Below, one piece after another: positions 22,401 to 28,400 of a DNA stretch of 64,000 nt. The DNA comes from Escherichia coli (GTDB lineage: Bacteria; Pseudomonadota; Gammaproteobacteria; Enterobacterales; Enterobacteriaceae). The DNA is taken from NCBI RefSeq assembly GCF_003790525.1, contig NZ_CP033635.1; one strand, given 5' to 3'. The position numbers were made by a program. The first letter of the stretch is position 1, and the number at the start of each line of letters is the position of its first letter.

Positions 22401-25400
22401 AAATAGTAAAAAGATAGTAATGAAAAGATAAAATTAACTTTTTTAAAATAGAATATAAACTCATCACTTTATCACTCGATTAAACAATAAAATACAGTAA
22501 ATCAATGGGATTATATTAATCAATGACACGACAATTAACTTAGACACAGCTATTCCAACAACACCAAATATGTTAGTCAGATAAAATGTTATAACAAGAG
22601 ACGGTATAAGCATATATATATGCAATTTACTTATAAAACCTTGCCGATCACTCATATTTAAAAAAACATATACAGGGCAAAATATTGCATTAATAATCTG
22701 CGTCATAACTAAAATAATTAACACTTCGCTAGCATTACTGTATTGAACACCAAATATAGATAATATCAGCCCTGAAAAAAAGGGAAACAGAAGAGCCATT
22801 AAAACACATGGTATCATTATGAAGAACATAGCTTTTTTAGTTAGCTCTTTTATTTCATTCATTTTACTTTGGCTGTATAAACTGGCGACCTTAGGTGCCA
22901 GAATTGTGCTAATTGACATTGCAAATAAATTTATAACCAAGGATATTCTATCAGACACAGCAATAATAGCGACATCAGCAGCTGGGAGCAACAAACCGGA
23001 AAGTACAACATAAGATTGAACAATCAGCATTCCTAATGAGTTACCAATGAAATACTCTGATAATTCTTTCAGTCTAAACGGTATTGACTCTGTTTCTAAC
23101 CGATTGAAATCGTCCCTAAATTTATAATACGAGTATACCCCCCCCCCTCCTCCAATAAGAATAATTGAGAAGAAGTATGATAAAGACACCAGTAAAACAC
23201 TTTCATTTTTAATCAGAACAATAAGTAATACAAAAAAAATAAACAATAAGGGTTGAAATATATACTGCAGAACAACACTAAAAGTGACAAGACCTTGAGA
23301 CTGTAAAAAGGAATATAACAATATATTTACTGACGATGATATTATCAACAGAATCGCCAAACACCATGTATTTCGTAATAATAATTGTGGCGAAAAATAA
23401 TGAATTATAGGTATTAAAATGATAGATAAGATAATACTGGATATAACACTCCGTTTTATGCATCTAAGAAAAAAAACGCCTCGTGCTTTTAATGCATATT
23501 TAACTGAGGCACATTTTTTCAAAATTAAATTATTTTGTCCTAAAGAGGATAGGGACGATATTATTCCAGTTACTGATAATAGGAAGAAAACCCCACCAGC
23601 CTCACTCATATTGAGCGTTCTTGATATCATCACACTCGTTGACAGCGCAAGTATAGCGCCGAATATCCTCAACACAAATACAGTTTTAATTGTAAACATT
23701 AACTTCTCGTTATTTACCCAAAGACCTCTTTGCAACAAATAATAGGGGGGAGGGTATAGATACTACCCCGCAAGACGCAAAAAACAACGCTACCGCCCCT
23801 GGCTTAACAGCTACCAGTTCACTAACACAAACTTATAACATGGCAATCTTAATAAATTCGTCTCTAATAAAACAAGAGACCGTTTTCTAAATCACATGAA
23901 GCAAAAAATCACCATAAAAGATCTAAACATCATCTGATATTTTAAACATTAGCTTAGATAATCGGTTGACGACTTTCATATTACTATTTTCTCCCGCCTT
24001 TTATCTTCATTAAAAATCATTTATAATTATTTCTTCTATTTTACCACGGAATTTTGTGCCTAGCATAATGTTTCTCAAACCATACTTCACAAACGCCTGC
24101 ATATAGCCCATTTTTTTGCCGCAGTCGTAACTGTCGCCAGTCATCAGCATTGCATCCACAGCATGTTTTTTCGCCAGTTCGGCAATGGCATCAGTCAGTT
24201 GAATACGTCCCCATGCACCAGGCTGAGTACGTTCCAGTTCCGGCCAAATATCGGCAGAAAGCACATAACGACCTACGGCCATGATATCTGAGTCCAGCGT
24301 CTGCGGCTGATCCGGTTTTTCGATAAATTCAACAATGCGGCTGACTTTACCTTCGCGATCCAGCGGTTCTTTGGTCTGAATGACGGAGTATTCAGAGAGA
24401 TCGCCCGGCATACGTTTTGCCAGCACCTGGCTGCGTCCCGTTTCATTGAAGCGCGCAATCATAGCGGCAAGATTGTAGCGCAGCGGGTCGGCGCTGGCGT
24501 CATCGATAACAACGTCCGGCAATACCACGACAAATGGGTTGTCACCAATGGCCGGTCGCGCACACAAAATGGAGTGGCCCAGACCTAAAGGTTCGCCCTG
24601 ACGCACGTTCATAATGGTCACACCCGGCGGGCAGATGGATTGAACTTCCGCCAGTAGTTGACGCTTCACGCGCTGTTCAAGAAGAGATTCTAATTCATAA
24701 GAGGTGTCGAAGTGGTTTTCGACCGCGTTCTTGGACGCGTGAGTTACCAAGAGGATTTCTTTGATCCCTGCAGCCACAATCTCGTCAACAATGTACTGAA
24801 TCATTGGCTTGTCGACAATCGGTAGCATCTCTTTGGGAATCGCCTTAGTGGCAGGCAACATATGCATCCCAAGACCTGCTACCGGTATAACTGCTTTTAA
24901 ATTCGTCATTCTTTTCCTACCTCTAAGTGGCTGATAGTGCGTAAATTATTGCCATAGGTTAGCCAACGGTATGGCTATATGCCAAAGCTTAGTACCGCAT
25001 AACTTTGATTAAACCTTACGATAACACTACACACCATCAGCATCTGGGTTACTCGGATTACTCGGAAATCCACATACTGATAATTTAATCAGTACCTCTT
25101 TCCGAATAATCGTAGTCCAACCTAGTCCTTTTTTCTCTGACTCGTCTGCATTACTCAGAAACAAACGTTATGTCGTCTTTTTTGGCATGGACGAATTCAT
25201 ACTGCAGAGTTCGATCCAGACCTTGCGACAGCGTATACGGTGCAACAAAACCTGACGAATGCACTTTCGTTGCGTCAAACTGTGTAGTTGCGCAGAACTT
25301 TTTCACGCGCACAGAGCTGACAGCGTATTTTTTGCCCATAATTTTGCTCAGGATATCAAAGCAATATCCACCCAGCATTCCTAGTGGGTAAGGCAAGTGC

Positions 25401-28400
25401 ATAGAAGGGATCTTTTTGTTCAGACTTTGTTCAACTTCAGCAACCAACTGGTTCATGTTCAGGTCTGGCTTATCAACGTAGTTATAAACCTCATAACCTG
25501 CGGCAACATTCTTCAGTTTGTACTTGATAAACTCAACAATGTTTCCAACATAAGCCATGGACTTATAGTTAGTCCCTGCGCCCACCATCATAAACTTGCC
25601 GCCAGCGATCTGTTTCAGCAAGTTATAGACGTTACCGCGGTTGCGTTCACCGAAGATAACGGTAGGACGGATGATGGTTAATGAACGTTCTGTTGGTGCT
25701 TTGTTATACCATTCACGCAGCACTTCCTCTGCCTGCCACTTACTTTTGCCGTAGTGGTTGAAAGGGTCGTGTGGATGGTTTTCGTCAGGGTTATGTTTGT
25801 TCAAACCATAAACAGCAACGGAACTGGTAAAGATGATATTTTTAACGCCATTTTTTTCCATGGCCGCCAGCACATTGCGGGTACCCTGAACGTTGACATC
25901 ATAATAGAGAGAAGTAGGGCTGACGTCATCGCGGTGTTCCGCTGCCAGTAGTACAACAGTGTCAAAACCAACTAATGCCTGGTCGAGTGCCTGTTGATCG
26001 CGAACATCGCCAATCTGTGTGATTTCTGGATAAAAGTGGCTCTGCTGTTTGTCCAGGTTCTTGATATTAAAGTCAGCAATTGCCGTTTCAAGTAGTCGGG
26101 TTCCTACGAATCCGGAAGCTCCTATGAGCAAAACGTTATCGTTCATAAATCACTTTAGTCTGGTTGTTACGTAAGAAACACAAGATAAAGATGAGTACCT
26201 TCCCTGAGTAGTCAATGCTGCCCAGCCCCAGCTTTAACAGTTAGTGTGAGGATTATAATCTTTTAGAACATTATATCCAGTAAGTTTATGAATGGTCGCA
26301 AATCTACTCCCTCCGTTCCGGCAATCTAAAGTTAATCTTTTCCACATTAACAATATGGTGATTAATCCTGTCGATATCGACGGAGCTTTGCCCTTTTTCA
26401 TTCACCGCATGAACATTTGCAAGAGACAGTAGTGTTTCTTTTTTCGCCATAAAGACGCCGCGAACGTCTTTGCGCATGTCAAAGTTCATGCTCAATGCGG
26501 GTCCAACTGAGGATTCCTGCATCACATTGATATTACGCATAAAAAGATGTTGCGGTTTGTTGTGTAACTCCAGCGACGCACGCTTCATCTCAATGTTAGT
26601 CAGCGCCACAAAGGAGACAGCATTCCCGGCGGAGATTTGAATGCCGCGCAATTTATAAGCAAGATGAGTATTATCCAGTTGAATATTATTCACCCGGAAA
26701 TTCTGCGGTATCGAGAGATATTTGCCTTTAATTACCCCATAGCCGATTAACATCCCGGCACTATTAATCATTTCAATATTATCAATCACAAAGTTGTCAC
26801 AACCATAAATAGCAACTGTGGCGTTATCAATACCTGCTTTCTTACTGAAATCCGGCGTGATATTACGGGCTTTGATATTACGAATAACAAAATGTTTACC
26901 ATTTTCAACATGGATCAGTTGCCGACAATCCGATCCCGTGATATTCGCCACGACAAAGTTTTTCACTGCCTGGTCTTCCGGGTAGTTGTTATCATAAGTG
27001 CTTCCCGCAAGACCTATGCCAATGCCCCAGTTGATTTTGCCGTTAGTACAGTTGATGCGCTCGATGACATGGTCAGATATCAAAATATCACGGTCGTTAA
27101 TCGCCACGTTCCATTCAATAGCGTCGCCCTGTAAGTCACTGAACTTACAGTTGGTGATGTTGGCACCGATAATCTGATTATGAAATCCCTGGCGTAAGAT
27201 GGCGTAATTAGCGTGGCTGACAGTGAGGTTATCGATGGTCAGGTTGCGCATGACCCGTTTGTTTTTGCCGCCGATATAAATCTGCGTTACCGGACCAAAG
27301 CCGCTCATCGCCAGCCCTTTGATGGTGCAGTCAGAGCCGCGCACATCCAGGGTGATGTTATGCATACTGCCGCCCTCCTCCCCTGTCACCTGGCTGCCGT
27401 CCTGTAAGACAAATCGCCCTCTGCCGTTGCCGCGCAAGCTTCCAAGAATGTGTAACGTTTTACCGGGAGGGATAAAGATGCCGGTGTTGATATTGTCACA
27501 AACCAATCCGCCAGGCACGACAACCGTTTGCCCTTCGCTGAAGGCTTGTTTAAATGAGGCGATCCAGTCGTGAGGGTTGTAGTCGTTAATGTTTACGCTT
27601 TGTCGGGCGGATAGTGCGCGAGCGAAAGGGGTATGAAGGAAGGCAAGCGCGGAGCTTGCCGTCAGGAAGGTGCGTCGGGAGAGTGTTTTAAATGGCATAC
27701 GTTCTCCTCTATAAAGCCTGCAGCAAGCTGGCGAGTTCTCGATTGATCACCTGCTGGTTAAAATCGTGTTCGACTTTTTCGCGAGCACGTTTGACGACAG
27801 GAGCCAGTTCGTCGGTGTCCAGTTGGCTAAACGCCGCCAGTCGTTGCGCCAGTGCGCGAGCATCGTTCTCAGGCACCAACCAGCCGGATTTATCGGCCTC
27901 CACCAGTTCAGGAATTCCGCTATGCAGAGTAGAAACCACCGGAATGCCGACCGCCATCGCTTCCATTAGCGCCACCGGGATGCCTTCCATATCGCCGTCC
28001 GCACCCGTTACCGAAGGCAACAGGAAGACATCCGCGTCGTCGAGCATCGCCTTCACTTCGTGGCTTGGTTTAAAGCCCGGCATCTCCACCACATCTTCCA
28101 GTTGATATTGTTCGATGAGGGTGCGCAGGCGTCGTTCCCACGGGCCAATGCCGAGGATGCGATAGCGAAATGCCACGCCCTGCTCTTTCAACTGAAGGCA
28201 GGCTTCGATCGCCACATGCAGGCCTTTTTTCTCGGTTAAGCGTGCGACGGAAATGATTTCCAGCGGCGTTGCGGGCGCTTTCACCGGACGCGGGCTAAAA
28301 CGCGTCATGTCCACGCCCATGCGCGATACGGCGATTTTTTCCCTCGGGCAGCCCATTTTTTGCAGCCTTCCGGCCCACAGATTGCTTATTGGTAACATCA

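Follow-up and report, generated by a model that had tools for sequence, protein, structure and literature searches.

Between galF and wcaM, at a site where E. coli K-12 strain MG1655 has only a 174-bp spacer with no annotated gene, the stretch of E. coli DNA analyzed here (64,000 nucleotides, hereafter the window) encodes an epimerase-like protein, and the question raised by this locus is whether that protein supplies GalNAc for the adjacent O-antigen cluster and, if so, in what form. The reading that we favor, with a probability of about 0.93, is that the open reading frame is gnu, encoding an extended short-chain dehydrogenase/reductase (SDR), GlcNAc-PP-undecaprenol 4-epimerase, that gives GalNAc-PP-Und for synthesis of the O21 antigen. 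This is gnu in its ordinary form, intact and at the site usual for E. coli, beside the O21 cluster, and a finding of gnu at the O21 locus is already known.

A preliminary description of this DNA had placed an SDR-type epimerase between galF and wcaM, at a site empty in K-12, and both statements agree with the data. An ORF scan of the window recovers exactly the predicted frame, which starts with ATG and encodes 331 amino acids without interruption; its product matches the NAD-dependent epimerase/dehydratase family of Pfam (PF01370, E=3.7e-30), and the neighboring genes each pass the cut-off of an NCBIfam equivalog model, galF with 665.5 bits on TIGR01105 (cut-off 659.2) and wcaM with 1023.6 bits on NF007517 (cut-off 808). 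Because at least 1,000 public contigs carry exactly this protein sequence, gnu is a real gene and not a chance ORF. The RefSeq annotation of a near-identical genome names the product N-acetyl-alpha-D-glucosaminyl-diphospho-ditrans,octacis-undecaprenol 4-epimerase, presumably by means of a similarity rule, since in a profile search the protein falls below the cut-off of every NCBIfam HMM. GlcNAc-PP-undecaprenol 4-epimerase is classified as EC 5.1.3.26. The coordinates of gnu and of the features surrounding it are collected in Table 1.

Table 1. Features of the gnu locus and the adjacent O21 cassette, in window coordinates.
Feature	Position	Strand	Description	Basis
O21 O-antigen cassette	18328..23738	-	six genes; GC 0.27-0.33	RefSeq, Pfam, ORFs intact in window
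GT2 glycosyltransferase	18328..19068	-	last gene from galF	Pfam
wzy	19093..20175	-		RefSeq 'O21 family'
GT25 glycosyltransferase	20172..20852	-		Pfam
GT-A glycosyltransferase	20855..21664	-		Pfam
GT2 glycosyltransferase	21673..22464	-		Pfam
wzx	22464..23699 (RefSeq; ORF extends to 23738)	-	first gene from galF	RefSeq 'O21 family'
JUMPstart element	23786..23824	-	upstream of wzx, downstream of galF	Rfam RF01707
galF	24010..24909	-	downstream neighbor of gnu; marks 5' border of O-antigen locus	TIGR01105, RefSeq
gnu-bearing segment, 1,363 bp	24927..26289	.	present/absent among E. coli strains	BLASTN and local alignment against MG1655
gnu coding sequence	25151..26146	-	331 aa; GlcNAc-PP-undecaprenol 4-epimerase, Z3206 orthologue	ORF, 329/331 identity, RefSeq name, SDR motifs
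Candidate sigma-70 promoter-like site	26252..26279	-	TGGATA-16-TATAAT, 10/12 matches, about 105 bp upstream of gnu ATG	consensus scan
wcaM	26304..27698	-	upstream neighbor of gnu; last gene of colanic acid cluster	NF007517, RefSeq

Comparison of the galF-wcaM region with that of MG1655, by BLASTN and local alignment, reveals that homology ends at position 24926 and restarts at 26290, and therefore that the segment bearing gnu replaces an unrelated 142-bp stretch of K-12 spacer. A search of the flanks of this segment for the direct or inverted repeats of a mobile element returned only short ones at chance level. The promoter-like site upstream of gnu may serve its transcription, yet it constitutes weak evidence, as the consensus scan found nine such sites in the region compared with 5.1 +/- 2.3 in shuffled sequences. 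Downstream, the JUMPstart element is recognized at E=1.4e-11, its 56.4 bits exceeding the gathering score of 35, and its position places both gnu and galF outside the O-antigen operon that it heads; the only other match in the Rfam scan was a single sub-threshold snoRNA, treated as chance.

The identity of the gene follows from its relationship to Z3206 of O157:H7, the same-locus protein with which the window's product shares 329 of 331 residues (99.4%), the two substitutions being A59V and T270M. The suggestion that the enzyme is of the Gne/Z3206 type is thus upheld. The proteins at the galF-wcaM locus of O157:H7 and O55:H7 are one sequence (WP_000999466.1), and Gne1 of O86 reportedly does not differ from the O157 protein (Cunneen 2013); accordingly, where the preliminary description offered Gne (O55/O86) and Z3206 (O157) as alternatives, it was right as to homology, but these are the same protein rather than two enzymes. 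Z3206 of O157 is the type member of Gnu, the clade D GlcNAc-PP-undecaprenol 4-epimerase (Rush 2010; Cunneen 2013), and was found to convert GlcNAc-PP-Und to GalNAc-PP-Und (Rush 2010, as summarized in Cunneen 2013), a role likewise stated in the review by Liu. Since 2013 the gene has been named gnu rather than gne, the latter being reserved for the UDP-GlcNAc epimerases of the GalE clade (Cunneen 2013). The activity assigned here to the window's protein is taken from this near-identical O157 enzyme. In favor of the assignment, the strongest sub-threshold family hits are SDRs with lipid substrates (HpnA, 3-beta-HSD, NSDHL) and not GalE.

Proteomic work on O157 lists Z3206, adjoining galF (Z3205), at 37,141 Da, in line with a mass of 37,142 Da calculated from the O157 sequence, and reports that the protein was detected, with enrichment in insoluble material (O157 proteome paper). 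Within the window's protein, hydropathy analysis finds no transmembrane segment (the maximum over 19 residues, 1.45, falls at the Rossmann beta-1 strand), and a check for membrane anchors finds no prominent amphipathic helix. Any association of Gnu with the membrane is probably peripheral and not integral.

The content of the adjacent cassette bears upon the purpose of the gene. As the preliminary description had noted, RefSeq annotation and Pfam domains place no sugar-synthesis gene among the six genes of the cassette, nor do they place an initiating transferase there. In the near-identical genome RefSeq names wzx and wzy as 'O21 family', and a genome with a 99.7% identical wzy is labelled O21:H9 by its depositor; the assignment to O21 rests upon these names and this label, because NCBIfam holds no models for the window's wzx or wzy. 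The O21 structure was reportedly published by Staaf in 1999, and O21 is said to have been treated alongside Salmonella O38 by Li in 2011. In secondary accounts, from which the presence of GalNAc is drawn, the O21 unit contains one main-chain GalNAc and no GlcNAc, and gnu is listed as needed and present and gne as absent (Cunneen 2013 Table S2), which accords with the GalNAc-containing O-unit that had been anticipated. Since the unit is devoid of GlcNAc and the cluster is devoid of an initiating transferase, it can be deduced that GalNAc is the first sugar of the O21 unit and that initiation depends upon WecA.

Co-occurrence of gnu with O21 is complete among the genomes surveyed. By RefSeq name, gnu is present in 1,314 of 5,426 complete E. 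coli genomes (24%), and it is found in all 34 of those that carry the window's O21 wzy, with wzx-galF-gnu forming a contiguous segment in each, at least 99% identical; given the 24% background, the hypergeometric probability of this co-occurrence is 8e-22 when shared ancestry is ignored. Two gnu records are designated as plasmids, and their sizes, 438 kb and 4.8 Mb, suggest that both are probably chromosomal.

On the reading of the gene as gnu, synthesis would begin on the cytoplasmic side of the inner membrane, where WecA, whose gene lies outside the window, loads undecaprenyl phosphate with GlcNAc-1-P taken from UDP-GlcNAc; Gnu would then invert C4 of the lipid-linked GlcNAc to give GalNAc-PP-Und. 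The NAD-binding motif GASGFVG (residues 9-15; G9xxG12xxG15) is intact, as is the triad S109/Y132/K136, which aligns with the catalytic S124/Y149/K153 of GalE. By analogy with GalE, the reaction may pass through a transient 4-keto intermediate with a tightly bound NAD+ held at this motif, and Tyr132 may act as the base together with Lys136 and Ser109. The four O21 glycosyltransferases would then extend GalNAc-PP-Und, such that a five-sugar unit is predicted, and Wzx would flip this unit before Wzy polymerizes it.

A different account, corresponding to gne in its original sense, holds that the enzyme is a UDP-GlcNAc 4-epimerase producing cytoplasmic UDP-GalNAc, from which WecA would move GalNAc-1-P to Und-P. 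Gnu and GalE do share a fold and a catalytic triad, some database entries within the 90% cluster are still named 'UDP-N-acetylglucosamine 4-epimerase', and the literature on this activity is in conflict, given that Wang 2002, as far as its title goes, favors a UDP-GlcNAc epimerase activity for the O55 protein while the O157 enzyme lacked activity on UDP-GlcNAc (Rush 2010, as summarized in Cunneen 2013). Several observations argue against the account. Firstly, Gnu is 30% identical to K-12 GalE and scores 70.3 bits on the GalE model TIGR01179, well below its cut-off of 262.3, and 55 bits on NF007956, where the cut-off is 394. Secondly, solved GalE/GALE chains match Gnu at E ~1e-11 at best and over partial stretches. 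Additionally, the hypothesis that WecA uses UDP-GalNAc has been described as having 'fatal flaws', and O86 requires both Gne1, which is of the Gnu type, and Gne2, a true clade A enzyme (Cunneen 2013), from which it follows that neither can substitute for the other. We consider this account very unlikely; of the two products put forward in the preliminary description, GalNAc-PP-Und is the accepted one and UDP-GalNAc is not, and the best homology is to Gnu rather than to GalE or another SDR subfamily. A related proposal, to which we likewise attach a very low probability, is that Gnu is bifunctional in vivo, acting on both UDP-GlcNAc and UndPP-GlcNAc, or that the allele with V59 and M270, a common one, is altered in specificity. 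The present data offer no pointer to either, though bifunctionality, if true, would bring the 2002 account of the O55 protein, identical to that of O157, into line with the 2010 result.

It might also be argued that gnu, though intact, is an idle passenger, dispensable for O21, that arrived by recombination together with the galF-proximal flank. Recombination has made a mosaic of the sequence flanking the O locus, and in ten serogroups gnu or gne is present though the structure predicts neither (Cunneen 2013). Set against this are the listing of O21 among the serogroups in which gnu is needed, the integrity of gnu in 34/34 O21 genomes, the mostly synonymous nature of its substitutions (relative to the O157 allele there are 16 nucleotide differences, of which only two alter the protein), and the absence from the O21 cassette of another route to GalNAc, all of which render a passenger role highly improbable. 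Hardly credible is some other SDR activity, such as that of a 4-keto-sugar reductase or dehydratase or of a lipid dehydrogenase like HpnA, 3-beta-HSD, or OleD: among sub-families, the best NCBIfam and Pfam matches are indeed to HpnA, LegB, OleD-type reductases, and 3-beta-HSD, and clade C of the same superfamily includes a 4-keto reductase (Cunneen 2013), but all of these matches lie far under curated cut-offs (HpnA, 93 bits against 368), and 99.4% identity to a biochemically characterized enzyme outweighs remote family resemblance.

For the annotator, the designation gnu, as opposed to gne or galE, conveys that GalNAc is formed on the lipid carrier and begins the O-unit, and correct annotation thereby aids both glycoengineering and the prediction of O-antigen structure from sequence. 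Beyond annotation the significance is small, the gnu rule having been published between 2010 and 2013 and being already embodied in RefSeq names; the O21 cluster serves as a clean positive control that agrees exactly with that rule.

Among known systems, the nearest is Gnu/Z3206 of O157:H7, which has the same length, the same wcaM-galF locus, and the same flanking spacers (98.5% DNA identity over 1,411 bp), and which likewise accompanies an O-unit with GalNAc and without GlcNAc and a cluster that lacks an initiating transferase; the window differs in that its two substitutions, both conservative, set its allele apart and in that the adjacent cassette is O21 rather than O157. More distant is the clade D Gnu of Yersinia pseudotuberculosis, for which the same function is proposed and whose presence shows an absolute correlation with GalNAc in the first position, although about 50% of its residues differ from those of the E. 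coli O157 protein and its gene is located inside the O-antigen cluster, whereas gnu of E. coli lies upstream of galF (Cunneen 2013). The GalE/Gne enzymes of clade A (E. coli GalE, Y. enterocolitica O:8 Gne, and O86 Gne2) are similarly extended SDRs with a Rossmann NAD site and a Ser/Tyr/Lys triad, and like Gnu they invert C4 of a gluco-configured sugar. They act, however, upon UDP-sugars, whereas the substrate of Gnu is a polyprenyl-diphosphate sugar (Cunneen 2013), and the C-terminal substrate domain of Gnu is poorly alignable with that of GalE. Among solved structures, no PDB chain matches Gnu more closely than E=2.6e-17. Location separates them as well: galE resides in the gal operon and gne inside the galF-gnd cluster (Cunneen 2013 annotation criteria), while the window's gnu is found on the wcaM side of galF. 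The gene described here belongs with Gnu, its product grouping with the clade D type member and not with GalE/Gne, and its position being, as for gnu elsewhere in E. coli, upstream of galF and outside the O-antigen cluster proper.

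The preliminary description assigned an SDR-type epimerase to the galF-wcaM interval, and that placement is confirmed by the agreement of an uninterrupted ORF found by scanning the window, the models matched by its two neighbors (see table), a match of the ORF product to Pfam PF01370 (NAD-dependent epimerase/dehydratase; E=3.7e-30), and SDR motifs. Specifically, the product, Gnu, has its cofactor and catalytic motifs intact, with GASGFVG spanning residues 9-15 and YGKSK spanning 132-136; S109, Y132, and K136 align in BLASTP to the catalytic S124, Y149, and K153 of K-12 GalE. No transmembrane segment was found in Gnu. 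An O157 proteome study detected the O157 protein, Z3206, enriched in the insoluble lysate fraction, as would suit a protein attached peripherally to the inner membrane. Because the JUMPstart element occupies the galF-wzx spacer, where the head of an O-antigen operon is expected, gnu is not part of the operon that this element heads. A promoter-like site with 10/12 matches, a candidate by consensus match only, is located approximately 105 bp upstream of the gnu ATG. Nothing favors gene status for the antisense ORF within gnu.

Features of the galF-wcaM region and the neighboring O-antigen cassette
Feature	Position	Strand	Remarks
O cassette			between galF and gnd; O21-family wzx, four glycosyltransferases, O21-family wzy (RefSeq annotation of FDAARGOS_536)
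JUMPstart element	23786..23824	-	galF-wzx spacer; Rfam RF01707, 56.4 bits
galF	24010..24909	-	downstream of gnu; above NCBIfam GalF equivalog cut-off
gnu	25151..26146	-	ATG start, 331 aa
antisense ORF	25397..25681	+	94 aa, within gnu
wcaM	26304..27698	-	upstream of gnu; above NCBIfam WcaM equivalog cut-off

The expectation of a Z3206-type enzyme is borne out by 99.4% protein identity (329/331 residues; differences A59V and T270M) to the same-locus protein of O157:H7 strain 611, the two alleles differing at 16 nucleotides, 2 of them non-synonymous. The O157 protein has a calculated mass of 37,142 Da, compared with 37,141 Da given for Z3206 in the O157 proteome study, in which Z3206 adjoins galF (Z3205). 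Given this identity to a characterized enzyme, a different SDR activity for the gnu product is unlikely. A single protein, WP_000999466.1, occupies the locus in both O157:H7 (L002 1753..2748) and O55:H7 DEC5A (L008 1718..2713), and therefore "O55 Gne" and "Z3206" are one protein with two conflicting published activities; Cunneen et al. (2013; PMC3682973) state that O86 Gne1 likewise matches the O157 protein exactly. Thus, the homology proposed earlier to Gne of O55/O86 and to Z3206 holds, while their treatment as two separate enzymes does not. The ORF is Gnu, already known, tabulated for O21 in 2013, and correctly named in RefSeq as [quoted passage not shown]

When 24900..26310 was compared by megablast with 5,426 complete E. 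coli genomes (at least 80% coverage), the gnu segment was present in 1,314 (24%), nearly all at 95-99% identity. Ten genomes carry a divergent allele (80-90% identity), some genomes contain up to three matching places, and two "plasmid" matches, on records of 438 kb and 4.8 Mb, are probably chromosomal sequence. At least 1,000 public contigs carry the exact Gnu sequence, and its 90% cluster has 2,299 members, including Shigella and Citrobacter entries.

Across 29.4 kb, the window shares 99.46% identity with E. coli FDAARGOS_536, and all six cassette ORFs are intact with the expected Pfam domains. As the preliminary description had stated, sugar-synthesis genes are missing: the cassette holds only wzx, wzy, and four glycosyltransferases, and an initiating transferase is likewise lacking. 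GC content across the cassette (18000..24000) is 0.27-0.33, whereas the genes on either side (his, gnd, galF, and colanic-acid genes) range from 0.44 to 0.57; low GC of this kind is usual for O-antigen clusters. This wzy is found at 99.7% identity or more in 34 complete genomes, one labeled O21:H9 by its depositor. The GalNAc anticipated for the O-unit is found, second-hand, in Table S2 of Cunneen et al. (2013; PMC3682973), in which O21 has one main-chain GalNAc, no GlcNAc, and "need gnu = Y," with gnu present and gne absent, both as expected. Since neither GlcNAc nor an initiating transferase is present, GalNAc is deduced to be the first sugar of the O21 unit.

In an independent check, a query spanning wzx-galF-gnu is fully covered at 99% identity or more in exactly those 34 wzy-bearing genomes, two of which appear to be a single assembly deposited twice. 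That gnu is an idle passenger is unlikely in view of its retention in 34/34 O21 genomes vs. the 24% background (hypergeometric P = 8e-22, shared ancestry ignored), the mostly synonymous divergence, and a cassette without an alternative GalNAc route.

The site is indeed empty in K-12, the galF-wcaM gap of MG1655 being 174 bp and free of annotated genes. Homology stops at window 24926, 17 bp upstream of the galF ATG, and restarts at 26290, 14 bp beyond the wcaM stop; since the intervening 142 bp of K-12 and 1,363 bp of the window share no detectable similarity, the polymorphism, as read from the alignment, exchanges one spacer for a segment that carries gnu. Terminal repeats hinting at a mobile element were not found around that segment. 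E. coli G6/7 (NZ_CP060061.1, L003 2763..4399) lacks gnu; an IS1A transposase takes its place, wcaM is a truncated pseudogene, and the galF-gnu spacer is retained up to the equivalent of window 25146, which looks like an IS1-associated deletion. Window GalF has 299 aa vs. 297 aa in K-12, O157, and O55, and its alignment to the GalF model (1-295 of 297) does not extend to the last residues; a recombination junction may lie at the 3' end of galF, where it adjoins the O cassette.

Alignment with FDAARGOS_536 confirmed collinearity for 10902..40310, where 160 mismatches cluster in his genes (~11-13 kb) and colanic-acid genes (~35-40 kb), with only six in the 14-34 kb core, a pattern that marks the flanks of the O-antigen locus as a recombination mosaic. 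If collinearity holds throughout, the layout of 1..64000 follows standard E. coli order (sbcB, yeeD/E, yefM/yoeB, his operon, wzzB, ugd, gnd, O cassette, galF, gnu, colanic acid cluster, yegH, asmA, dcd, udk, dgcE, alkA, yegD/I/J, pphC), with no unusual features annotated.

Taking second-hand from the literature both the activity of the near-identical O157 enzyme and the GalNAc of the O21 unit, a pathway can be proposed in which WecA would make GlcNAc-PP-Und. Gnu would oxidize C4 via bound NAD+, with Tyr132 as base assisted by Lys136 and Ser109, and would re-reduce the resulting 4-keto intermediate from its other face to yield GalNAc-PP-Und, on which the four cassette glycosyltransferases would build a five-sugar unit.

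Of the two products first suggested, GalNAc-PP-Und is the accepted one and UDP-GalNAc is not. The reading of the enzyme as Gne in the original sense, a UDP-GlcNAc 4-epimerase, goes back to a 2002 paper describing the identical O55 protein and is contradicted by the O157 assay of Rush et al. (2010), as summarized by Cunneen et al. (2013; PMC3682973), by the requirement of O86 for both Gne1 and Gne2, and by the distance of window Gnu from the GalE clade. Cunneen et al. placed the enzyme in clade D, named it gnu with O157 as type strain, and kept gne for clade A, the GalE clade; this role and naming are repeated in the review of Liu et al. (PMC7685785) and a 2022 O125 paper. The best remote matches of Gnu are the lipid-substrate SDRs HpnA, 3-beta-HSD, and NSDHL, in weak agreement with a lipid-linked substrate. 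Among PDB chains, none is close enough to count as a Gnu structure, and solved GalE/GALE chains match at ~1e-11 at best over partial stretches. At the sequence level, these comparisons fit placement in clade D, window Gnu sharing only 30% identity with K-12 GalE and scoring 70.3 bits against the GalE model vs. a cut-off of 262.3 bits.
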